Shown here: piece by piece, positions 19,360 through 56,293 of the stretch
Layout of the letters: each line of letters begins with the position of its first letter
How positions within the stretch are numbered: the stretch's first letter is position 1
DNA from: Blastocatellia bacterium
GTDB taxonomy: Bacteria; Acidobacteriota; Blastocatellia; UBA7656
Assembly: GCA_036505875.1 (NCBI GenBank)
Contig: DASXSR010000324.1
Coordinates: forward strand, 2,225-66,224
Direction of reading: 5' to 3'
Length of the DNA stretch: 64,000 bases
Made by a program: the position numbers and the translations under genes
The notes under the pieces: model-generated
Seen by the model: the letters and a program-made list of their open reading frames with translations, nothing else
Database searches by the model: none
Told to the model about the DNA's origin: nothing

Positions 19360-20364
19360 ATGGAGGATGGAGGATCGATCCTCGATCCATCCCTCCTCGA
19401 TCGTCTTTCTTGTGGGGGCTGTGTGAACAACATCAAAGTCTTTTCGGGAAATGCGAACCGGCCGCTTGCTGAGGAGATCTGTTTTCACTTGGGGATCGAG
19501 ATCGGCAAGGCGCAAGTCGGGCGGTTCTCCGACGGCGAGTTCAACTTTCAGATTCTGGAGAACGTTCGCGGAGAAGACTGCTTCATCGTTCAACCGACTT
19601 GCCCGCCGGTCGATTCGAACGCGATGGAGTTGCTGATCATGCTCGACGCGTTTAGGCGGTCGTCGGCGAAACGGATCACGGCGGTGATACCGTATTACGG
19701 GTACGCGCGCAAGGATCGGAAGGATCGGCCACGAGTTCCGATCTCGTCGAAGCTCGTGGCGAATCTGATAACGGGTGCTGGAGCGGATCGTGTGCTGTTG
19801 TTCGATTTGCACGCCGGTCAGATTCAAGGGTTCTTCGACATACCGGCTGACCACTTGTTTGCGGCGCCCGTGCTGGTTGGGTACTTCCAGTCGTTGGAAT
19901 TGCGCGACCTCACGGTGGTTGCGCCCGACGCGGGAGGCGTCGAACGAGCCCGCGCTTATGCGAAGCGATTGAGCGCGGAGCTGGCGATTATCGACAAGCG
20001 TCGCGACTACGAGCGACTTGGTGAGGTCGAGGTGCTTCACGTGGTCGGGGATGTCGAGGCACGAACGGCGCTGATCGTAGACGATATGGTGGACACTGCA
20101 GGGACGTTGGTCAAAGCAGCCGAGGCTCTCAAGGAGAACGGCGCAAAAGCGGTGCTTGCTTCTGCTACGCACGCAGTGCTTAGCGGGAATGCGATTCAAC
20201 GAATCGAGGATTCGGTGATCGAGCAGTTGGTGGTGACCAACACTATTCCCACCGAGTCCGCTTGCCGCTCGCCCAAGATTAAATGCCTGAGTGTGGCGAA
20301 GCTGCTGGCTGAGGCGATTTTATCGATACACGACGAGACATCAGTGAGTAAACTGTTTATTTGA
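19360..20364 (+). CDS. prs: Ribose-phosphate pyrophosphokinase
   Basis: [27 protein letters not shown] and [10 protein letters not shown] motifs. ATG 19360 lies inside a palindrome (GAGGATCGATCCTC, 19370-19383) just after the tRNA. GTG 19423 (VNNIKVFSG) matches the usual Prs N-terminus better. Confidence 0.9.
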
Positions 20365-20381: not shown

Positions 20382-20451
20382 GTGACTCGTGATGCGTGAT
20401 TCGTGAAGAACCTACTCACGAATTACGCATAACGGATCACGAATCACTTTT
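20382..20451. repeat. Family A heptad-periodic inverted repeat (copy A1), terminator-like
   Basis: Left arm GTGACTC GTGATGC GTGATTC GTGAAGA, loop, right arm TCACGAA TTACGCA TAACGGA TCACGAA TCAC, then TTTT (20448-20451). Lies between prs and rplY. Confidence 0.8.
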
Positions 20452-20464
20452 GGAGTTCTAGGAA

Positions 20465-21142
20465 ATGATCAAGGACATAACAATCAATGCAAAGCCGCGC
20501 GACGGCGTAGGCAAAGGACCGACTCGCAGGCTGCGCGCGCAAGGAATGATCCCGGCCGCAGTCTATGGCGAGGGGGGAGACTCCGTGGCTGTGGCGGTGA
20601 GCGCCAAGGACATCGCGACGATACTGCGCTCGGACACGGGCCACAACACAATTTTCAAGCTCGCGCTGCCGCATGCCGACGGCGAGCCGGCAAATGTGAT
20701 CATCAAAGACTATCAGGTCGATCCTGTACGCGGCCGCTTGCTGCACGCGGACTTGTTTCGATTGTCCATGACGACGGTGACGCGAGTGAGCGTTGAAGTT
20801 GAGCCGGTTGGTGATCCGGTTGGAGTCAAGACCGAAGGAGGCATATTCGAGCTCCAGCTTCGCGAGCTTGATGTCGAATGTCTGCCGGGCGACATTCCCG
20901 AGCACTTGAAGGTGGAAGTGTGGAACCTCCACATCGGAGACCACGTGACCGTCGCCGATTTGATTTATGACCGCGAAAAAGTCAAGGTGCTTGCCGATGA
21001 AAGTCAGATAGTTGCCGGCGTGTTGGCGCCGCGTATGATCGAGGAAGTTGCGCCTGCGGCTGAGGTTCCTGAAGGCGAGGCTGCGCCTGCCGCCGAGCCT
21101 GAAGTAATCAAGAAGGGCAAGGCCGAGGAAGAAGGTCAGTAG
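20465..21142 (+). CDS. rplY: 50S ribosomal protein L25 / general stress protein Ctc (long form)
   Basis: 225 aa. N-terminus INAKPRDGVGKGPTRRLRAQGMIPAVYG... is typical of L25/Ctc. Acidic Ala/Pro/Glu-rich tail. Confidence 0.9.
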   Translation: MIKDITINAKPRDGVGKGPTRRLRAQGMIPAAVYGEGGDSVAVAVSAKDIATILRSDTGHNTIFKLALPHADGEPANVIIKDYQVDPVRGRLLHADLFRLSMTTVTRVSVEVEPVGDPVGVKTEGGIFELQLRELDVECLPGDIPEHLKVEVWNLHIGDHVTVADLIYDREKVKVLADESQIVAGVLAPRMIEEVAPAAEVPEGEAAPAAEPEVIKKGKAEEEGQ

Positions 21143-21205
21143 TCCGTAGTCCGTTGTCCGTAGTGAGCGGGAACGACTACGGACCGCTGACCACGGACTA
21201 AGGAC
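21142..21205. repeat. Family B heptad-periodic inverted repeat (copy B1)
   Basis: Left arm GTCCGTA GTCCGTT GTCCGTA GT, 11-nt loop, right arm AC TACGGAC CGCTGAC CACGGAC TAAGGAC. It fills the whole rplY-pth spacer from the TAG stop to the ATG. Confidence 0.85.
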
Positions 21206-21206
21206 T

Positions 21207-21794
21207 ATGAAGCTGATAGTTGGGCTTGGGAATCCGGGACGCGAATATGAAATGACGCGTCATAACATTGGGTTCTTGCTCGTTGACAACTTATTTGAGC
21301 GGGCCGGGGGTCGCCGCTTTCGCGGTGAAGCAAACGCGAAAGTTGCGGACGTCACGCTCGCTGGCCAGCGAGTGTTGCTGGTGAAGCCGCAGACCTTTAT
21401 GAATTTGAGCGGGGATGCCGTTCGACCGCTAGTTGAGCGGTACACCGACGCGAACGCCGCTGATTTGATCGTCGCTTGCGATGATGTAGCTCTGCCGGTC
21501 GGGATGATCCGCGTGCGAGCGCGGGGAAGCGCCGGCGGGCATAACGGACTGAAGTCGATAATTGAACGGCTGGGTACTCGGGAGTTCGCAAGAGTAAGGT
21601 TTGGTGTAAAGCCCGGCCATCCGGTCGACGATCTTGTTAGCTTTGTGCTTTCGCCGATTCCAACGCGCGGCCGCGACCACTTGGAGCAGATGCTCGATCG
21701 GGGCGCGGAAGCAGTGGAAGTAATCTTGACCGAAGGCGTCGAGCGCGCAATGGCGCGCTTTAATGAACGAGTGAAGAGTGAGAATGGTTCGTGA
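21207..21794 (+). CDS. pth: Peptidyl-tRNA hydrolase
   Basis: MKLIVGLGNPGREYEMTRHNIGF... is the canonical Pth N-terminus. Confidence 0.92.
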   Translation: MKLIVGLGNPGREYEMTRHNIGFLLVDNLFERAGGRRFRGEANAKVADVTLAGQRVLLVKPQTFMNLSGDAVRPLVERYTDANAADLIVACDDVALPVGMIRVRARGSAGGHNGLKSIIERLGTREFARVRFGVKPGHPVDDLVSFVLSPIPTRGRDHLEQMLDRGAEAVEVILTEGVERAMARFNERVKSENGS

Positions 21795-21869
21795 GGCGTG
21801 ATGCGTGATTCGTGAAACGATCGAACAAAATGACGGTTCACTAATCACGTTTCACGGATCACGAATCAC
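21791..21869. repeat. Family A inverted repeat (copy A2), terminator-like
   Basis: Left arm GTGAGGC GTGATGC GTGATTC GTGAAAC, whose first unit contains the pth TGA stop. An 18-nt loop, then TTCACTA ATCACGT TTCACGG ATCACGA ATCAC, followed by TTGTTGTTCTTTCTC. Confidence 0.8.
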
Positions 21870-21969
21870 TTGTTGTTCTTTCTCAAAGAGGTTCTACAAC
21901 GAACCTCCTTGCTCCGGCCTTGGAGACCGGGGCTTTAACCGAAGCGTTGCAAGCTGCGACGGGTAAACA

Positions 21970-22009
21970 ATTTCAAATCTCAAATTTGAAATTTGAGATG
22001 ACGTGAAAT
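21970..22009. repeat. Family C heptad-periodic palindrome (copy C1) in the rpsF leader
   Basis: ATTTCAA-ATCTCAAATTT-G-AAATTTGAGAT-GACG-TGAAAT. The 11-bp core stem is 21977-21987 paired with 21989-21999. Confidence 0.8.
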
Positions 22010-22499: not shown

Positions 22500-22796
22500 A
22501 TGAGCAGCGAACCCAGAGAGCAGGGGCGCCGCGATGACCGTGGCGGCAGGCAAGGCGGCGGACAAGGCGGGCCTGCGCGACGCTTTGTGCGAGTGCGCAA
22601 GTCGTGCAGATTCTGCGCCGACAAAGTTGATTACATCGATTACAAAGACGGGCGATTGCTCGGCGGTTACATCCCCGAACGCGGGAAGATTCTGCCGCGA
22701 CGAATATCAGGCACCTGCGCGCCGCACCAGCGCATGCTCGCGACCGCAATCAAGCGCGCGCGCAACGCCGCGATTCTTCCGTTCAGCACGGATTAG
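22500..22796 (+). CDS. rpsR: 30S ribosomal protein S18 with Arg/Gly-rich N-terminal extension
   Basis: Start at ATG 22500, 1 nt after the rpsF stop. Core [60 protein letters not shown]. Confidence 0.92.
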
Positions 22797-22859
22797 TCCG
22801 TAGTCCTTGGTCCGTAGTCCGTAGCTGCAGCTACCGACTATGGACTACGGACCACGGAC
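22796..22859. repeat. Family B inverted repeat (copy B2), 64-nt near-palindrome
   Basis: GTCCGTA GTCCTTG GTCCGTA GTCCGTA GCTG | CAGC TACCGAC TATGGAC TACGGAC CACGGAC. Of 32 positions, 27 are Watson-Crick pairs and 2 are GU. It starts at the G of the rpsR TAG stop. Confidence 0.88.
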
Positions 22860-23520: not shown

Positions 23521-23522
23521 TG

Positions 23523-23549
23523 GCAGCCTCAATGGCTGTTATCTTTTTT
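23523..23549 (+). terminator. Rho-independent terminator after rplI
   Basis: Stem (G)CAGCC pairs with GGCTG(T), with a 5-nt loop, followed by TATCTTTTTTC (six T at 23544-23549). Confidence 0.55.
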
Positions 23550-23712
23550 CGTCGAAGGCTCGACTGACCTTGGTCTTCTTGTTATCATCGCGCGCGGAAT
23601 GCTGAGGGCACAGCGCTCCGCGGTGTAGTTGGTTGCAATCAAAACTCTTAGGTTGTCCCGCTCAAGTCGCACGCCTTACGGAATGGGTTCTCAAACAAAT
23701 ATAGGTTAAGAG

Positions 23713-25059
23713 ATGTCACGAACGGCCATGGGGGGTGATCCTTTTTTTGAGAAGGGTCTTCCGTCCAACATCGAAGCCGAACGATCTATTCTTGGCGCGA
23801 TCTTGCTCGACAGCCAAGTCTGCAATCAGGCGATCGAGCTCCTGCGCCGTGACGATTTCTTTTTGGACTCACACCGTCGAATCTTCGATAAGATGATAGT
23901 CCTCAGCGAGCGAATGACGCCGATCGATCTAGTCACGCTTCGCGAAGAGCTGCAGCGCGCTGGCGAGTTCGAACAGATCGGTGGCGCAACCTACATCGCG
24001 TCGCTGATTGACGGCGTCCCGCGCACCGACAACATCGAACCTTACGCGAGGATAGTCAAAGCCAAGTCGATGCTCCGCAAGCTCATCACCGCGTCTAATC
24101 AAATCGTCGCTCTCGCCTTTGAGGAAGAGGACGAACCCGATGTGATCATCGACAAAGCGGAACAGATGATCTTCCAGATCGCCGAAGATCGCGTGCGGCA
24201 GGGCTTTCAATACGTCGGCGACGTGGCGCATCGAAGGCTGGAGCAGATCGAGCAAATGGCCGGCCGGCCCGAGATGATCACCGGCGTGCCCACAGGCTTT
24301 ACCGACTTTGATCGAATGACCTCCGGTTTGCAGCGGCAAGAGTTGATCGTAATCGCCGGTCGGCCCTCTACCGGCAAGACAGCGCTGGCTTTGAACATGG
24401 CCCAGTACGCCGCAAAGAACGCCAACGTCGTTGGAATCTTCAGCCTTGAGATGTCAGCAGAACAGCTTGTGTCGCGATTGCTCTGCTCGGAAGCGCGGGT
24501 CGATGCGCACCGCCTGCGAACCGGCTATCTTAATCGCGAGGAGTGGGCGCGACTGGCCGACGCGCTGCGGCGATTGTGCGAAACGAAGGTCTACATCGAC
24601 GACACGCCGGGCATCGGAGTGATGGAGATGCGCGCGAAGAGCCGGCGACTCAAGGCCGAGCACGGATTGGACCTTCTGATCATCGATTACCTTCAGTTGA
24701 TGGCTGGGCGAGGGAGAATCGAGTCGCGGCAACAGGAGGTGTCGCAAATCTCGCGCGATCTTAAAGCGCTTGCAAAAGAACTGGAAGTGCCTGTCGTTGC
24801 ATTGTCGCAGCTTTCGCGTGCGCCCGAGCAGCGCACCGAGCACAAGCCTCAGCTTTCCGATCTCAGAGAAAGCGGCGCGATAGAACAAGACAGCGATGTA
24901 GTTGCGTTCATCTATCGCGAAGAACTCTACAACCCGACTGATGAGAATCAGGGCGTGGCCGAGTTAATCATCGGCAAGCAAAGAAACGGTCCGACTGGCA
25001 CGGTTCCACTAGCTTTCCTGAAAGAGTTTACGCGGTTCGAGAATATGTGGCGAGAGTGA
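23713..25059 (+). CDS. dnaB: Replicative DNA helicase DnaB
   Basis: 448 aa. [18 protein letters not shown]-domain, Walker A GRPSTGKT, and LIIDYLQLM...[23 protein letters not shown]. No intein. Confidence 0.95.
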
Positions 25060-25131
25060 TGCGTGATTCGTGATGCGTGATCCGTGACGCGAGACTGTCC
25101 GATCACGGATCACGCATCACGAATCACGGAC
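25056..25131. repeat. Family A inverted repeat (copy A3), perfect 25-bp stem
   Basis: Left arm GTGATGC GTGATTC GTGATGC GTGATCC GTGACGC, loop, right arm GATCACG GATCACG CATCACG AATCACG. Positions 25063-25087 pair perfectly with 25103-25127. The first unit contains the dnaB TGA stop. The element ends 12 nt before the mutM ATG. Confidence 0.92.
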
Positions 25132-25140
25132 AACTCTCCT

Positions 25141-25929
25141 ATGCCCGAGCTCCCCGAGGTAGAAAGCCAACTCCGCTATTTTCGCAGCACTGCTTTAGGC
25201 CAGTGCGTCGAGCGAGTCAGGATCACCTCTCCGAACATCATAAAAAAGCCCGCTGCTCAAGCGTTCGCGCGGGGGTTGCGCGGGCGATGTTTCCAACAGG
25301 CATCGAGACGCGGCAAGTACTTAATTGTCACCCTCGACAATCGCCGAACGATGATTCTGCATTTTGGAATGGGGGGTGATCTCGGCTACTATACGACCGC
25401 CAGGGACCGTCCGGAATATACGCGCCTTGAGTTCATTCTCAAGAACGGCTGGCGATTGGCATTCACTTGCCCGCGGAAAATCTGTCGCGTGATGCTGGTC
25501 GATAAACCCGACGACGTCCCAGCTCTTCGAGAGATGGGACCCGAGCCGCTCGGCGAATCTTTCAGCCTCGCGTTTTTCGAGCGCTTGATTGAAGAGCATC
25601 CTCGTCGTCAAATCAAAGCGCTCCTAATGGACCAGAGACTGATAGCCGGGGTGGGAAATATCTACGCGGATGAGATTCTGTTCGAGGCGCGAGTGCGCCC
25701 CGACAGGCTCGCATCGACTTTGAGCGAAGAAGAAATCAAGCGCCTTCATCGCGAGACGCGCCGCGTGCTCAGGCGCTCGATTCGGACGGCGGGCGACGAC
25801 AAGTTCCCCTCGGACTTTTTGTCATTGCGCGCCTCGCGCGGCAAGGGGTGCCCAGTCTGCGGAGGTCCCATCAAGAAGAAAACGATTGCCGGCCGCACGG
25901 CGCATTTCTGCCCTAGATGTCAGGTGTGA
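25141..25929 (+). CDS. mutM: Formamidopyrimidine-DNA glycosylase (Fpg/Nei family)
   Basis: Start fixed at ATG 25141 because Fpg/Nei enzymes need the N-terminal MPELPEVE (catalytic Pro after Met removal). C-terminal zinc finger CPVCGGPIKKKTIAGRTAHFCPRCQ. The track ORF from 25084 merely translates the hairpin. Confidence 0.9.
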   Translation: MPELPEVESQLRYFRSTALGQCVERVRITSPNIIKKPAAQAFARGLRGRCFQQASRRGKYLIVTLDNRRTMILHFGMGGDLGYYTTARDRPEYTRLEFILKNGWRLAFTCPRKICRVMLVDKPDDVPALREMGPEPLGESFSLAFFERLIEEHPRRQIKALLMDQRLIAGVGNIYADEILFEARVRPDRLASTLSEEEIKRLHRETRRVLRRSIRTAGDDKFPSDFLSLRASRGKGCPVCGGPIKKKTIAGRTAHFCPRCQV

Positions 25930-32576: not shown

Positions 32577-32630
32577 CGAAAATCTCGAATCTCAAAGTTC
32601 AAATTTCAAATTTGAGATTTGAGACTTCGA
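32577..32630. repeat. Family C heptad-periodic inverted repeat (copy C3)
   Basis: Units TCGAAAA TCTCGAA TCTCAAA GTTCAAA TTTCAAA TTTGAGA TTTGAGA CTTCGA. Positions 32584-32597 pair with 32611-32624 (13 of 14), and TCGAA pairs with TTCGA at the ends. Confidence 0.85.
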
Positions 32631-47361: not shown

Positions 47362-48876
47362 ATGTACGAAAGAAGCGAACCCGCCGCACGCCAGCCTGAA
47401 AGTTATCCAACGTCACGACCTATCCGATTGATTATCACACTGATCGCAATCACTTGTCTTTCAATCGGTATCGCCGTAGGTGCAATGGTCCAGGAGATCG
47501 CGCGTGCCCGATCGGAAGACAACCGATTGACGATCAGCAGCACGGTTGCGACGCCTGACGCGTTGTCGGCGACCTTCGCGCGCGTGTCGCGAGACGTCGA
47601 ACCTTGCGTCGCCCACATAAAAGTATTCGAGAGTGAAGTGTACGCCCGCGAAGGCGCAGGTTCGGGCGTAATCGTTAACTCGGCTGGTTTCATCTTGACT
47701 AACGCGCATGTCGTCAGGCGCGCTAATAAGATCAGGGTCAAACTGTCAGACGGGACCGAAACCGACGCGAAGGTAATCGGCGTCGACACCCAGACAGACT
47801 TAGCTGTGATTAAGATCGCAGTCAGTAAACCGCTCCCAGTCGCGAGAATGGGCGATTCGGACAAGCTCAGCGTCGGCGATTGGGTGCTCGCCATTGGTTC
47901 GCCTTTCGGGCTCGAGCAAACTGTGACTGCTGGAATCATCAGCGCCAAAGATCGCGTGACCGGCAATGATGCGACGCCGTTCCAGCAATTTCTTCAGACG
48001 GACGCCGCCATCAACCCCGGTAACTCCGGAGGTCCGCTGGTTAGCCTAGCTGGCGAAGTGATAGGCATTAACACACAGATCGCGACCAACACCGGAGCTT
48101 ACAACGGAATCGGGTTCGCGCTTCCGTCTTCGACTGCCGTGGAGATTTACAATCAGCTCGCGACCGATGGTCGAGTGCGTCGCGGGTTCCTGGGCATCGC
48201 TCCGCAAGAAATAACACCGCAGATCACCCGTTTGAATAACATCCCGAGCGGCCAGGGCGTCGTTGTGAAAGACCTAACGAGTGAAACGAGCCCGGCTGCA
48301 CGAGCGGGCTTGCAAAGCGGCGACGTGATCACAACAGTCAACGGACAAAAAGTGGCGACCACGCGTGAGCTCATACGGCGGATCGCTGCCCTTCCGGTTG
48401 GCAGTGTGGCCGACATTGAATACGTGAGGGCAGGCCAGCGGCACATCGCGAAGGTGAAGCTCGAAGAGAGAAACGATTCGACAGAGGACCCGCTGAACGT
48501 TCGCCCGATACCGTTGCCTCGGAGTCCGCGACGAGCGCCGGAGAATGATGACGGAACGCAGCGCAAGAGCAAATCAATTTCAGGTCTTGGGGCCAATGTG
48601 AAAACGCTGACGCCGGAACTCGCTCGAACTCAGGGGCTGGAAGGCGCGCGAGGCGCGTTCGTTTTCAGCGTAGAGCCCGGAAGCCTCGCCGACGAAAACA
48701 ATCTCACGGCGGATGATCTCATCGTCGAGGCTAACAACAGACCGATCGCCAGCCAGGAAGATTTTTTGCGCTTCACCCAAGAGCTCAACAGCGGCAACGA
48801 TGTGGTCTTAAAGGTGTTGCGAAAGGAGCGCGGTCCGCTGCGACGCGCGTGGATCATTTCGTTCACGATGCCGTAA
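47362..48876 (+). CDS. HtrA/DegP-family serine protease with two PDZ domains (HtrA-1)
   Basis: N-terminal TM anchor. Catalytic triad context TNAHVV, DLAVIK, GNSGGPLV. Two PDZ-like regions follow. Confidence 0.88.
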   Translation: MYERSEPAARQPESYPTSRPIRLIITLIAITCLSIGIAVGAMVQEIARARSEDNRLTISSTVATPDALSATFARVSRDVEPCVAHIKVFESEVYAREGAGSGVIVNSAGFILTNAHVVRRANKIRVKLSDGTETDAKVIGVDTQTDLAVIKIAVSKPLPVARMGDSDKLSVGDWVLAIGSPFGLEQTVTAGIISAKDRVTGNDATPFQQFLQTDAAINPGNSGGPLVSLAGEVIGINTQIATNTGAYNGIGFALPSSTAVEIYNQLATDGRVRRGFLGIAPQEITPQITRLNNIPSGQGVVVKDLTSETSPAARAGLQSGDVITTVNGQKVATTRELIRRIAALPVGSVADIEYVRAGQRHIAKVKLEERNDSTEDPLNVRPIPLPRSPRRAPENDDGTQRKSKSISGLGANVKTLTPELARTQGLEGARGAFVFSVEPGSLADENNLTADDLIVEANNRPIASQEDFLRFTQELNSGNDVVLKVLRKERGPLRRAWIISFTMP

Positions 48877-48878
48877 GA

Positions 48879-48949
48879 GTGATGCGCGATCCGTAGTTCG
48901 TGAAGCAGTTCTTCGTTCGCGAATCACGCATCACGATTCACGCATCATT
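48879..48949. repeat. Family A inverted repeat (copy A4, degenerate), terminator-like
   Basis: Left arm GTGATGC GCGATCC GTAGTTC GTGAAGC, loop, right arm GTTCGCG AATCACG CATCACG ATTCACG CATCATT, then CTTTT (48950-48954). Begins 3 nt after the htrA-1 stop. Confidence 0.75.
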
Positions 48950-52722: not shown

Positions 52723-53663
52723 AACAGCGCAAGGTGATAGACGTCCATGACTTGTGATATTGGGCAGGCATAAGAGACTTTAGCAGTCTTCCGCGTTCCG
52801 CCGATTTTTCGAGTGATCTCGCCGCTGGCGACGTGGAGTCCAAAGATGGTACGGTCACCTTCTTGGTAAATCGCGCTTCCCGAATCACCGGGTTTAGCGA
52901 ACGGTCGACGACCGTCTGACCATTCAATTTCAATCATGTTATCGAACCGGTGGTTCCCGGCTCCAGGAATCTCAATAGTGACGTCATTTATGCCGACCGA
53001 AACATTCTCGGCGGGTTCGCTCGTGTAGCCAGTGGTCCTTCCAATTTTGGCGATGCGTTGGTCGAGCTTAAGATCGAACGGATCGACAATGGATTCAAAC
53101 GCCTGGCCGGCATCGGGCGCGCCGCTTTCAGGCGAGATCACATTCTCGTTAATATCGACTTCGTCCTCCAGAATGCAGTAGGCGGCGTCTATGTAGTTCG
53201 AGCCGATTCGAGTAAGTGCTCTGAAATTTGCAAGCCTTCCAATCCGATTTTGGGTATCGGCTGCCAAGTCGGGCGGGCCCGGCTGGTAAATCCATTGTCC
53301 CGCATTGGCCTCATTTACCAAGGCAAGCACATGATTGCAGGATACGGCGGCGACGCCGTTGGCAGCGCTGGCGAATAGCCCGATAGTTCCCGGCCCGCCG
53401 TCGAGATGTCCTATGGAATACCCGATTGAAAGCGGGCGGAGATGTTTGGTCCCGAAACTGCCGCGGGATCCGGTTTCGGCTACAGCCTTTTGAGAGGGCA
53501 CCGTTAGTTCAGAGGATTCGGCGGATTTGACTGATTGCTCTCTTCCCCCAACCTCTGTGGTAGAATTAGTCGGCAAGTTGATGAAAAAGAGTCTGTACCT
53601 AGAGACTTCGGTGATCGGCGCGTATCTTGACAACGGCGAGCCGTTCCGCCGCGACCTGACCAT
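52719..53663 (-). CDS. Cytoplasmic chymotrypsin-fold (S1-like) serine protease
   Basis: Ordered triad contexts SCNHVLA (His), YIDAAYC (Asp) and PGDSGSAIY (Ser). No signal peptide. The 5' end is uncertain: ATG 53663 would overlap the divergent PIN gene by 83 nt, and GTG 53501 is an alternative. Confidence 0.7.
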   Translation of the reverse strand: MVRSRRNGSPLSRYAPITEVSRYRLFFINLPTNSTTEVGGREQSVKSAESSELTVPSQKAVAETGSRGSFGTKHLRPLSIGYSIGHLDGGPGTIGLFASAANGVAAVSCNHVLALVNEANAGQWIYQPGPPDLAADTQNRIGRLANFRALTRIGSNYIDAAYCILEDEVDINENVISPESGAPDAGQAFESIVDPFDLKLDQRIAKIGRTTGYTSEPAENVSVGINDVTIEIPGAGNHRFDNMIEIEWSDGRRPFAKPGDSGSAIYQEGDRTIFGLHVASGEITRKIGGTRKTAKVSYACPISQVMDVYHLALL

Positions 53664-54045
53664 ACGCTGGTGGGAGCATGAACTCGCTGACTATTCGCCT
53701 TACATTTCACCGTTGGTTGTCCGAGAACTCGAGCGCACCGAGGAGCCACGCCGGTCTGCGTATCTGAATCTAGTCCGAGATGTGCCGAAGTTCGAGATCA
53801 GCGAGGAAGCGGCTATTCTTGCCGACGGATACGTGTCGCGCGGGATATTTCATCGCAAGTACGTGGCAGACGCGCTGCACGTGGCAATCGCCTCGGTTAA
53901 TAAGGCTGATCTGCTGGTCACGTGGGATTTCGGATACATCGCGAATGTGCACCGGCAAGCGCGGGTGCAGTTATTCAACACGATTGCAGGGTTTTTCGTA
54001 CCGATGATTGTTACGCCCGAGTTTTTGATTAACGCGGAATTCTGA
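53581..54045 (+). CDS. PIN-domain (VapC-like) putative ribonuclease
   Basis: Start at ATG 53581. Acidic residues at PIN positions (LYLETSV, VVRELER, ADALHVAIA, LLVTWDFG). Confidence 0.6.
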   Translation: MKKSLYLETSVIGAYLDNGEPFRRDLTIRWWEHELADYSPYISPLVVRELERTEEPRRSAYLNLVRDVPKFEISEEAAILADGYVSRGIFHRKYVADALHVAIASVNKADLLVTWDFGYIANVHRQARVQLFNTIAGFFVPMIVTPEFLINAEF

Positions 54046-54048
54046 GGG

Positions 54049-54092
54049 TTCGCGATGCGTGATCCTGAAAGGAGTCACGCATCACGAATCAC
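54049..54092. repeat. Family A inverted repeat (copy A5, short)
   Basis: Left arm TTC GCGATGC GTGA (tcc), 12-nt loop, right arm TCACGC ATCACGA A. 14-bp stem with one mismatch (54049-54062 with 54075-54088). Followed by TCTTTACTTTT, then the ATG at 54104. Confidence 0.75.
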
Positions 54093-54103
54093 TCTTTACT
54101 TTT

Positions 54104-54319
54104 ATGTATCGGAAGCCGAGATTTCTGGAAGAGCTGCACGCCATTCGCGAAGAAATGTCTCGCGAGTGCGACTACGACGTTGACCTGTTCGCCGAGATGG
54201 TTCGCTCCGGCCAACGCCCGCGATTCGGAGCCGCCAGAAACGTTCGCAGCGTTCGTGCGCGAGCGTCGCTCGCGCACAGCCAGGACGCAAACACAAGATC
54301 AGGACAAGGGAATGATTAA
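54104..54319 (+). CDS. Small protein downstream of PIN (possible cognate partner)
   Basis: 71 aa, MYRKPRFLEELHAIREEMSRECDYDVDLFAEMVRSG... The N-terminal half looks like a small helical antitoxin-type protein, and the C-terminal half is low complexity. Overlaps the htrA-2 start by 8 nt. Confidence 0.4.
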   Translation: MYRKPRFLEELHAIREEMSRECDYDVDLFAEMVRSGQRPRFGAARNVRSVRARASLAHSQDANTRSGQGND

Positions 54320-55367
54320 GAGATCCTTCGGTTTAACAATGCTTGGGATGTTGACCGCGACGGTCGTGAGCGTTCGCGCCGAGCCGAGTCGCGATCAGGG
54401 CAAGACCGTGCTGCTCGATGTGCCGTCGATCGCTGAGCGTGTCAACGAAGTAGTTGTTAACGTGCGCGCTCTGTCGGAGGGCGGCGAGAATCTCGGAAGC
54501 GGATTCATAATCGATAAGCGGGGATTGATCGCAACTAACTTTCATCTGATCTCGAATGCCGAGCCTCGCCGCGGGTCGAGTCAGCGCGGACCCGAAGGTA
54601 AGACGCCAGTCAAGCTTTCGGGCAGCGTGACGGTGACGTTGCACGACGGCCGCCAATTTCCAGCGTCGATCAAAGGTTACGACGAAGCTACCGACATTGC
54701 TTTGCTCGAAATCGCGCCGGCCGGAGCGTCGCTTCCGGTTGCCGATCTTGGTGACAGCGATTCGCTGAGGGTGGGCGAGTGGGTAATCGCGATCGGCAAC
54801 CCGCTCGGACTGGACCACACGGTCACGCTCGGAATCCTCAGCGCGAAGGGTCGAACAGGATTCGGCGGACAGTTCGATGATTTTCTGCAGACGGACGCGG
54901 CGATCAACCCAGGGAACTCCGGCGGTCCTTTGTTGAACGCCCAAGCCAAGATTGTGGGCATCAACACCCTTGTGCTCGAGCGCACGCAGGGGTTGAGCTT
55001 TGCCATTCCGATCAACACTCTCAAGTCGATAATGCCGCAGTTGATCGAGCGCGGTCGAGTGGCCCGCGGATTTCTGGGCGTCGAGACGCGAGACATCGAT
55101 GCCGACGTTCGAGGGGCACTGAAGTTGGCGCCCGATGCGAAGGGCGTCCTTGTGATCCGCGCCGAGCGCGCAACGCCCGCGGCGCGAGCAGGTCTCCGCA
55201 AGGATGACTTGATTACACTGGTGGATGGCCAGCCAATCACTTCCTACGTCCAGTTCAACCGAATCGTTGCCGCCAAGCCTCCCGGAACTAAGGTCGCTAT
55301 CCGCATTCTTCGCGACGGCCGCGAATACACGTTGAATGCGGAGATCGGCGAGGAGACGAAGAAATGA
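54312..55367 (+). CDS. HtrA-family serine protease with one PDZ domain (HtrA-2)
   Basis: Start at ATG 54312 with signal peptide MIKRSFGLTMLGMLTATVVSVRA. Triad contexts TNFHLI, DIALLE, GNSGGPLL. Confidence 0.88.
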   Translation: MIKRSFGLTMLGMLTATVVSVRAEPSRDQGKTVLLDVPSIAERVNEVVVNVRALSEGGENLGSGFIIDKRGLIATNFHLISNAEPRRGSSQRGPEGKTPVKLSGSVTVTLHDGRQFPASIKGYDEATDIALLEIAPAGASLPVADLGDSDSLRVGEWVIAIGNPLGLDHTVTLGILSAKGRTGFGGQFDDFLQTDAAINPGNSGGPLLNAQAKIVGINTLVLERTQGLSFAIPINTLKSIMPQLIERGRVARGFLGVETRDIDADVRGALKLAPDAKGVLVIRAERATPAARAGLRKDDLITLVDGQPITSYVQFNRIVAAKPPGTKVAIRILRDGREYTLNAEIGEETKK

Positions 55368-55370
55368 TGA

Positions 55371-55452
55371 GTGATGCGTGATTCGTGATTCGTGATCTGA
55401 AACGTCACGCATCACGGATCACGCGTCACGAATCGCGAGTCATACGTCACGG
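55371..55452. repeat. Family A inverted repeat (copy A6)
   Basis: Left arm GTGATGC GTGATTC GTGATTC GTGATCT, loop GAAAC, right arm GTCACGC ATCACGG ATCACGC GTCACGA ATCGCGA GTCATAC GTCACGG. About 22 of 26 stem positions pair. It ends 4 nt before the ATG at 55457. Confidence 0.85.
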
Positions 55453-55456
55453 TTCG

Positions 55457-56293
55457 ATGAGCAAGCAAATCAGGGAACAAACTGTGGAGCAATCGTTGGC
55501 AGACACCTCTGCGATGGCCGAGCTTTTCGAAGCCATCGGATTCGAAGTCGCAGACGAGCGATCGTACAACGCGATTGTCGAGCAGGTCGAGTCAAACGGC
55601 GAGTGGACTCAGTTGCAGCGAGGGGAGACCGCTCTGCACGGAAGGTGCTGGCGGCTCGGAGACGGACTGGAAGTTTGGTCCTTACTCTACCAGCGCGACG
55701 CCGATTTTTATTATGCTGATTGCCGCCCCGCATTTCGCAGCCGGTACGTCCACAGAATTGAGCGGTGGGAGCTAGTCGAGTATGAAGAAGAAGGTGAAGC
55801 GACCGTGCGTGGCGTCGTTAGCGGGCCCACCGAGGTCGTTTTCGAACTTCAGAATCTGACCGAGCTCAAAGATGAAGCATTTCGCCAACCACAACTAAAC
55901 GTGGGCCTGGCAGGAATCACTTATACCGCGCGCGTGAACGCCGAGCTGTATTATCACTTTGAGTTGGCCGAGCGATTGGAGGGACTAGTCGACAACCTTT
56001 GTGAAAACGACTATGTGATCGGCGGGCGCGTAATGGCCTGGCGCGATATTCGCAACCCTGTCACGTCCGCGGAGCTCGTTTGGATCTATGTGGATGCCGG
56101 GGTGATTCGACTCGAAGTCCTGGCCAACCGCCAGGCACTGGATGGGCAGCTCAAGGTAGGCGCGGGGATTACCGCCAACATCTGGCTCCAGGGTCACCTC
56201 CTGGAGCATCGTGAGATATCCGCCCGGTACGAGGGCGTGGATAGAGACGTCGAACCTGCCGATTATTGGGCCGCGTTGCGCAAGGATAACTGA
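55457..56293 (+). CDS. Hypothetical 278-aa protein
   Basis: Start at ATG 55457; the track's upstream extension only translates hairpin A6. No motif recognised. Confidence 0.65.
   Translation: MSKQIREQTVEQSLADTSAMAELFEAIGFEVADERSYNAIVEQVESNGEWTQLQRGETALHGRCWRLGDGLEVWSLLYQRDADFYYADCRPAFRSRYVHRIERWELVEYEEEGEATVRGVVSGPTEVVFELQNLTELKDEAFRQPQLNVGLAGITYTARVNAELYYHFELAERLEGLVDNLCENDYVIGGRVMAWRDIRNPVTSAELVWIYVDAGVIRLEVLANRQALDGQLKVGAGITANIWLQGHLLEHREISARYEGVDRDVEPADYWAALRKDN

Follow-up and report, generated by a model that had tools for sequence, protein, structure and literature searches.

Tandem heptamer hairpins between stop and start codons of a Blastocatellia genome: a probable gene-less form of palindromic PF05635 cassettes

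A 64,000-nucleotide stretch of a Blastocatellia bacterium (GenBank assembly GCA_036505875.1, contig DASXSR010000324.1, positions 2,225 to 66,224 of the forward strand; hereafter the window) was analysed for a family of inverted repeats, family A, whose arms are tandem arrays of a 7-nt unit, GTGATNC in the 5' arm and its complement in the 3' arm. The host is a soil acidobacterium, represented by a metagenome-assembled genome (MAG) of 5.85 Mb in 426 contigs with 56% G+C, labelled G000. The relatives of its DnaB assign the window to an uncultured member of Blastocatellia (Acidobacteriota). An earlier reading of the window, the original prediction, had listed six copies (A1–A6), and all six are present (Table 1). 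Each follows an open reading frame (ORF) on the + strand, as had been proposed; these are prs, pth, dnaB, two genes for HtrA-like proteases (Pfam) and one ORF without a Pfam match. The window contains 22 occurrences of the core motif GTGATNCGTGA, where shuffled sequence would give 0.16, and Tandem Repeats Finder detected period-7 arrays at each of the six sites. All six copies fold as RNA into the hairpin that had been foreseen, with minimum free energies (MFE) of −25.4 to −54.5 kcal/mol and z-scores from −2.5 (A4, the most degenerate copy) to −9.1 (A3). The perfect 25-bp stem claimed for A3 was recovered upon folding, with at least 25 bp of stem free of interruptions.

The copies lie close to the stop codon of the preceding gene. 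The 5' arm of A1 reads GTGACTC GTGATGC GTGATTC GTGA and its 3' arm TCACGAA TTACGCA TAACGGA TCACGAA TCAC; the prs stop TGA (20362–20364) is 17 nt 5' of the element, and on the 3' side a Shine-Dalgarno (SD) sequence GGAG precedes the ATG at 20465. The coincidence of the gene's stop with the TGA of the first unit, predicted for A2 and A3, is exact in both: the pth stop TGA is at 21792–21794 in A2, which is followed by a conserved rpsF leader, and the dnaB stop TGA at 25057–25059 in A3, with the mutM ATG at 25141. A4 starts 2 nt past the TAA stop (48874–48876) of the protease gene 47362–48876, and A5 starts 3 nt past the TGA stop of ORF 53527–54045, with an ATG at 54104, 11 nt beyond the 3' arm. 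In A6 the stop TGA (55365–55367) is in phase within a degenerate outer unit and the next in-frame ATG is at 55457.

Table 1. Repeat elements and other features of the window. Positions are those of the window; MFE is in kcal/mol.
Feature	Position	Strand	Description	MFE	z
A1	20382..20451	.	family A hairpin, prs/rplY (L25) spacer	−35.7	−7.7
A2	21791..21869	.	family A hairpin immediately after pth	−37	−6.3
A3	25056..25131	.	family A hairpin filling the dnaB/mutM spacer	−54.5	−9.1
A4	48879..48949	.	degenerate family A hairpin	−25.4	−2.5
A5	54049..54092	.	short family A hairpin	−28	−6.8
A6	55371..55452	.	family A hairpin after HtrA-like protease gene 54180–55367	−44.8	−5.5
Canonical intrinsic terminator, not family A	23521..23551	+	GC stem and T-tract after rplI; the block's only one on the + strand (pattern scan)		
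Second heptamer family, (TAGTCCG)n…(CGGACTA)n	21135–21205, 22794–22859		rplY/pth and rpsR/rplI spacers, from TAG stop to ATG		
Third heptamer family, GAAATTT/AAATTTC arrays	21969–21994, 32580–32624		one copy in the rpsF leader region		

Over the whole genome the core motif gave 416 matches, grouped in 109 clusters. Convergent close array pairs were formed by 67 clusters with the core motif and by 76 with a looser seed, the latter being the count of two-armed family A hairpins in the genome, and the GTGA arm was on the 5' side in every case. The number of units ranged from 2 to 11 in the 5' arm and from 2 to 20 in the 3' arm, the variable positions being 5 and 6 of the unit. Among the periods scanned (4–12), period 7 is uniquely enriched, with 110 arrays versus 3–15 for periods 5, 6, 8 and 9. 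A scan blind to family yielded 31 unit families and 107 heptamer-armed hairpins; merging these with the family A list gives about 148 hairpins in the genome. Family A is the largest member of a class of heptamer hairpins.

These hairpins have a common polarity. The G/T-rich arm is on the 5' side in 95 of the 107 hairpins, and G exceeds C in the 5' arm of 80 elements versus 7 with the opposite bias; for the arms of the protein-coding cassettes of relatives (see below) the numbers are 17 versus 2. The 3' arm unit contains neither a start nor a stop codon in 84/107 elements. This polarity would fit a leader that must neither start nor stop translation. On viral contigs from IMG/VR, seven family A matches were obtained, most of them arrays with a single arm or short stretches of units; two contigs (L076, L082) carry one-armed arrays of 8–9 GTGATGC/GTGATTC units from which the inverted arm is absent.

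The position of family A relative to genes was determined with gene models from a crude purpose-made gene caller (5026 genes). The flanking gene pairs are ++ in 33 cases, −− in 24, +− in 10 and −+ in only 3, whereas divergent gaps make up 15% of the spacers. At 72 of the 77 junctions between a gene 3'-end and an arm, the stop codon is within 25 nt of the arm, and in 52 of these 72 it stands in exact unit phase, where about 10 would be expected under random phase. TGA is the stop codon beside family A in 58/77 cases, compared to 48.5% genome-wide (p = 2e-6). At the 120 co-directional junctions the element occupies a median of 84% of the spacer from stop to start, and the next in-frame start codon, ATG in 98 instances, follows a median of 12 nt past the 3' arm. 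A free SD 4-mer was found in only 19/95 junctions versus 41% of control genes, and the gap measured 10 nt or less in 49/95.

Units that lack a stop codon (GCGGATT, GGATTTT, AAGGCAG) likewise begin a few nt from the stop codon of the preceding gene. In such families the stop often comes from a variant first unit, such as TGATTTT ahead of GGATTTT and TGATTGC ahead of GGATTGC. In relatives, DnaB ends in ...MWRE whether the element is there or not, the stop being TGA, TAA or TAG, and the element therefore adjoins the original position of the stop. We infer that stop codon and repeat unit form a hybrid in the first unit, as would result from joining at a short homology followed by selection for intact genes. 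For TAACTGA repeats it has already been published that a heptamer containing a stop can overlap the end of an ORF over a short distance at most (PMC4679880).

The same arms also enclose a protein-coding gene, which the first reading of the window had overlooked. The genome has 11 matches to PF05635 (23S_rRNA_IVP), and at least nine of these 11 genes are enclosed by inverted short-period repeat arms, mostly of heptamers. Family A arms wrap two of them, at C228:1233-1770 and C298:14163-14709; the protein of the second spans C298:14204-14656. In both cassettes the TGA of the upstream gene lies in the first unit and the next ATG shortly past the 3' arm. A genome-wide check revealed no gene other than PF05635 enclosed by such arms, and between the arms of the six window copies a PF05635 ORF is absent. 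The two family A-wrapped proteins (about 145 aa) share 74% identity and bear only a remote similarity to the remaining nine PF05635 proteins. They match PF05635, which has been described as Avd-like (PMC10053308), and TIGR02436 ("four helix bundle protein"); among solved structures, that of Xanthomonas XCC0516 (PDB 2GSC) is the nearest. In six related genomes, 23 of the 32 PF05635 loci are wrapped, each by its own unit. A Mantel test of protein similarity against unit distance for 26 cassettes gave a weak correlation (r = −0.14, p = 0.03), which is partly confounded by orthology. No paper linking S23p or intervening sequence (IVS) proteins with heptamer repeats was found in the literature covered, which excluded subscription journals.

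The subfamily to which the two proteins belong, here called A-type, has more than 5000 members in public data, with members of about 70% identity in MAGs of Pseudomonadota, Anaerolineae and Chloroflexota. Seven A-type homologues were fetched; all are enclosed by GTGANNC or GTAAAAC arms and all lie between co-directional genes, including HK/RR, Fer2/MoCoBD, JetB/JetC and FtsX/FtsX. One further A-type gene, in the acidobacterium G057 (54% identity), was found among 401 Acidobacteriota genomes and has GTAAAAC arms. Overall, GTRANNC arms surround 8/8 A-type homologues elsewhere (54–72% identity; from Pseudomonadota, Anaerolineae, Chloroflexota, an acidobacterium and metagenomes), or 10/10 when C228 and C298 are included. 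For a control subfamily (C39 type), which also matches PF22296 (bAvd), AGAAGGC/AGTAGGC arms were found in 4/4 homologues, one of them from a Desulfobacterales MAG, as in G000. The A-type cassette spans at least three phyla, with the same 7-base repeats around one PF05635 subfamily.

The abundance of family A in genomes with an A-type cassette varies widely. The Anaerolineae genome has 192 family A matches, and in the Pseudomonadota genome the cassette's own arm is the only match. The lone cassette in the Pseudomonadota genome fits an arrival of arms and gene together. Among the 401 Acidobacteriota genomes, a three-unit family A pattern has 245 matches in this genome, 31 in a congener, 24 in another Blastocatellia family, 6–26 in a family of another class, and otherwise essentially none; the A-type gene is present only in G000 and G057. 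The control pattern for this search, family A read backwards (AGTGCNNAGTGCNTAGTG), gave 106 matches in one Blastocatellia genome, G211, which belong to another amplified family (AGTGCNN); a PF05635 gene of G211 (L095) has AGTGCAA arms.

The two arms of family A change length independently. Unit counts in the left and right arm are nearly uncorrelated (Spearman 0.18, p = 0.11; for instance 11 versus 18, and 3 versus 11), and variant triplets do not follow a mirrored order in the two arms (60 matches versus 57.5 expected after shuffling), with frequent mismatches at the variable positions. The arms thus slip separately and the perfect stem of A3 is an exception; compensatory expansion, suggested as a check of the original prediction, was not borne out, and nor were mirrored unit variants. 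The tandem nature of both arms allows pairing in any 7-nt register.

Turnover, which is rapid between related species, was followed at orthologous junctions (prs/rplY, rplY/pth, rpsR/rplI and dnaB/mutM) in about 20 Blastocatellia MAGs. The number of units differs everywhere, in line with the predicted growth and shrinkage of arms in 7-nt steps, and family A recurs in relatives at the sites of the window copies: at prs/rplY in L001, L003, L008, L020 and L024; after pth in L023, L024 and L054; and at dnaB/mutM, with other unit numbers, in L006, L008, L024 and L030. Some orthologous sites are empty, as dnaB/mutM in L023. The family at a junction can differ from that of the closest relative; at rpsR/rplI it is GTCCGTA in the window and family A in L020.

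Smaller palindromes are nested in some loops, for example in L006 and L001. The same second palindrome, GTAACGAATTCATTCGTT…AACGAATGAATTCGTTAC, lies within two family A loops of this genome (C30:4618-4730 and C213:3380-3511), and the loops of hairpins apparently serve as places where other small palindromes insert. An element of about 30 nt, AATAGGACCTATGCGACCTATATGACC, is found within family A loops at L006:2192-2280 and in the dnaB/mutM, rpsR/rplI and pth/rpsF spacers of L001; where these arms have been lost it occurs by itself, a distribution that suggests turnover by nesting and decay. In L007, L003 and L002 a long REP-like palindrome, CCTGGGAGCGCAGGCATCCCTGCCTGC…GCAGGCAGGGATGCCTGCGCTCCCAGG, takes the place of the heptamer hairpin in the prs/rplY spacer and the spacer downstream of dnaB. 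A decayed PF05635 cassette was observed at C126:14827-15095, where a 43-residue fragment with an in-frame TGA is left; its arms, GATAGAG…CTCAATC, are only 215 nt apart, and it represents a state between the full cassette and the hairpin without a gene.

Taken together, we consider it probable, with real room for doubt, that family A represents an IVS-like palindromic cassette in its gene-less form, the full form carrying one PF05635/TIGR02436 (S23p/Avd-like) subfamily. In the scheme we propose, the cassette would have tandem GTRANNC heptamers as its 5' arm, the complementary heptamers as its 3' arm and, between the two, the gene for the four-helix bundle of about 145 aa; it would spread horizontally together with its arms and leave gene-less copies behind. 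The junction would form at a stop codon, giving the hybrid first unit, and the insertions that survive would be those preserving both the stop and the next start. On the operon mRNA, the arms would pair in any 7-nt register, loop out the insert and bring stop and start together, which is why the insertion could be tolerated. The terminating ribosome might then melt the base of the stem and free the next start (translational coupling). The stem is a likely substrate of RNase III, by analogy with the intervening sequences of 23S rRNA. A TGA in all frames would allow the element to adjoin or supply the stop, as a condition of its tolerance rather than its purpose.

A further step is more tentative, and we hold it to be possible rather than probable. 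The pentamer of each PF05635 subfamily may be the sequence-specific partner of its own unit (GTRANNC for the A-type, AGAAGGC for the bAvd-like C39-type), binding the arms as DNA or RNA and helping the cassette, and the gene-less elements derived from it, to be copied, spread or renewed. Such a partnership would resemble that of RAYT (REP-associated tyrosine transposase) proteins with repetitive extragenic palindromic (REP) sequences but be built on a four-helix bundle, possibly with involvement of a reverse transcriptase.

Several observations weigh against the IVS-like cassette scheme. Two genomes (G187, G333) have 22–26 family A matches and no PF05635 gene, G221 and G291 lack an A-type protein, and G057 has the protein yet only one array match; several genomes without an A-type gene carry 20–30 family A matches. 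Arrays therefore persist without the protein, and their copy number is not tied to its present-day presence. The hairpin is absent at the same junctions in some relatives and only 41/67 spacers fold with z < −3; the hairpins are dispensable. Sense and antisense RNA fold equally well (54 versus 65, p = 0.36), which leaves selection at the RNA level unsupported. A search of family A for target-site duplications and near-identical copies gave none. The loops are diverse, with GTGACCGGA recurring only about eight times and no signature of a master copy, and no remnants of an A-type ORF were found in them. Descent from cassettes by deletion is what we infer, and the only decayed cassette seen, that of C126, does not belong to family A.

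The original prediction took the element for a dedicated six-frame translational stop fused to a transcription terminator. That three consecutive units place TGA in all three frames is plain in the sequence and follows from 7 mod 3 = 1, so that reading frames terminate within the first units; the unit-phased stops (52/72) and the excess of TGA (58/77 versus 48.5%) also agree with such a device. The T-rich tracts that had been noted after four of the copies are visible as tails (A1, A2, A4 and A5), but none fits a terminator pattern. A TTTT is present within 12 nt of the element in only 9/120 cases, and family A hairpins are therefore not intrinsic terminators; the pattern scan flags none of A1–A3, yet detects the canonical terminator at 23521. 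Most copies are intra-operonic, as the next gene begins a median of 12 nt past the arm, and intrinsic (Rho-independent) termination was rejected on this ground and because most copies have no direct U-tract. Nor does a purpose-built stop account for the families with stop-free units (GCGGATT, GGATTTT), which hold the same position, or for the 3' arm, which is open in all + frames. We regard this explanation as very improbable. The open 3' arm bears on annotation, since gene callers extend downstream genes into it and create N-termini with ...ITHHESR... strings; the spurious SRITHH-type peptides pointed out earlier have this origin.

Selection could act on the hairpin as an adaptive operon device, which couples cistrons or provides sites for RNase III and 3'-exonucleases that set mRNA levels, the PF05635 cassettes being incidental. 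A hairpin is found at the same junctions in many species despite differing families, with arms that always match each other; stop and start are at the foot of the stem, free SD sequences are few downstream, the gaps are often short (10 nt or less in 49/95) and the 3' arm units mostly lack start and stop codons (84/107). A precedent among REP elements has reportedly been given by Liang, Rudd and Deutscher in 2015. IVS elements are another (PMC4990558). However, several close relatives have no hairpin at the corresponding junctions, one is present at only about 5% of co-directional junctions, G-U pairs are not in excess in the sense strand and the variable positions often mismatch between arms; we think such a device unlikely. 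Alternatively, the arrays may have grown in place from ordinary short hairpins by replication slippage in 7-nt steps and be immobile, with mobile PF05635 genes homing into the loops of cognate hairpins. In L018, a distant relative, the rplY/pth spacer contains a one-unit hairpin, TGGTCAGT…ACTGACCA, in place of the multi-unit GTCNGTA arrays of close relatives, and L017 has mixed intermediate units. The independent evolution of the arms, the arrays in genomes without a PF05635 gene and the other small palindromes nested in loops point the same way, as does a slippage bias for heptamers proposed by Mrazek 2007, as related in PMC4679880. Growth in place does not readily explain why 76 unlinked loci share the GTGATNC unit, why distant phyla have it alongside the same protein subfamily, or why the Pseudomonadota genome has a family A-armed cassette and no other family A array. 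It is, in our judgement, distinctly unlikely. The descent from PF05635 cassettes is the explanation that we prefer.

Some other features of the window and its relatives were recorded. At the rplY/pth and rpsR/rplI sites, which hold the second heptamer family in the window, relatives have related GTCAKTN units. A block at 21872–21950, 3' of A2 (ttgttctttctcaa…ctccttgctccgg…ccggggcttaaccgaag), is conserved 5' of rpsF in nearly all Blastocatellia relatives and may be a ribosomal-protein (S6 operon) leader. A search of the window against Rfam at the gathering threshold returned only a tRNA-Gln, with no rRNA and no family for the rpsF leader block. In many Blastocatellia relatives (L026–L052) DnaB matches in two separate pieces (residues 1–222 and 220–448), which suggests an intein or other insert that is absent from the dnaB of the window.

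Heptanucleotide tandem repeats are the commonest class of long microsatellites in bacteria, and their cause and function have no accepted account. The arrays described here are register-free "zipper" hairpins wedged between stop and start inside essential operons. Their closest counterparts are the heptameric simple sequence repeats (SSRs) of Xanthomonas (GGGAATC) and Nostoc (GGGGAYT), which include convergent inverted pairs (Rehm et al. 2015; PMC4692102). Like these, family A consists of tandem arrays of at least two 7-nt units, heterogeneous at one or two positions, in convergent pairs, the published cases having 70–75 inverted pairs per genome; both lie between aligned or convergent ORFs, rarely divergent ones, within 50 bp of the stop codon or overlapping it, and vary strongly in length and sequence among close relatives. 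The G-rich arm comes first in both, the inverted pairs of Xanthomonas having the same G/T-rich-first polarity as those of this genome. In contrast, the GTGATNC unit has no G-tract and thus forms no G-quadruplex, it contains TGA in every unit, and its host is an acidobacterium. In the Xanthomonas table of PMC4692102, one GGGAATC array extends over the start of XCC0516, the PF05635 gene whose product is PDB 2GSC; the authors are silent on this overlap and make no mention of a link to PF05635.

The intervening sequences of 23S rRNA have a terminal stem that is cut by RNase III (PMC4990558) and occur with or without an S23p (PF05635) ORF, for instance in Coxiella, Leptospira and Salmonella. The C228 and C298 cassettes have the same composition, a stem of terminal inverted repeats around an optional PF05635 ORF. 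Both systems are selfish inserts closed by a long terminal stem, with an optional four-helix-bundle ORF of the same Pfam family; both are transcribed inside a host RNA and have a sporadic distribution that suggests horizontal transfer. Family A differs in residing in mRNA spacers between protein genes and not in helix 25 or 45 of 23S rRNA, and in having stems of tandem heptamers, for which cleavage by RNase III is predicted by analogy. The TAACTGA direct repeats of Beggiatoaceae, cyanobacteria and Bacteroidetes (MacGregor 2015; PMC4679880) share with family A a stop-containing heptamer, an intergenic position just 5' of starts (ribosomal-protein operons included) with few canonical ribosome-binding sites, an overlap with ORF ends that is limited by stop codons, and a patchy occurrence across phyla. 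They are direct and predicted to be unstructured, whereas the inverted pair of family A folds into a hairpin.

REP sequences and bacterial interspersed mosaic elements (BIMEs) are, as family A, dispersed extragenic palindromes at 3' ends or between cistrons for which a family-specific protein partner is suspected. Family A arms begin with GTGA, without the GTAG/CGTC head that PMC3733652 describes, and are tandem with a variable number of units; the candidate partner is a four-helix bundle and not a transposase. Six Y1_Tnp matches in the genome were considered as a RAYT partner and rejected, none having heptamer arrays nearby (two lie at contig ends). Miniature inverted-repeat transposable elements (MITEs) also have inverted arms; no duplication was seen at the fuzzy ends of family A, and PF05635, its partner gene, has no known transposase activity. 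With respect to diversity-generating retroelements, PF05635 and PF22296 resemble bAvd; the neighbours seen here are host operon genes. The short tandemly repeated repetitive (STRR) sequences of cyanobacteria, reportedly described by Mazel et al. in 1990 and referred to in PMC4692102, are also tandem heptanucleotides with several families per genome and no assigned function; the units and the phylum are different, and the likeness drawn here is one of tandem units. A partnership of protein and unit would, if true, provide a molecular cause for the heptanucleotide repeats of STRR, Xanthomonas and Beggiatoa, which have lacked an explanation since 1990. The present observations make of an old descriptive puzzle a directly testable question of binding and mobility. 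Family A ties together heptamer SSRs, the intervening sequences of 23S rRNA and Avd-like proteins, which were previously described apart. The anatomy of tandem and inverted heptamers and their genomic context were already known from Xanthomonas and Nostoc; the apparent specificity between protein subfamily and repeat unit is what stands out here.

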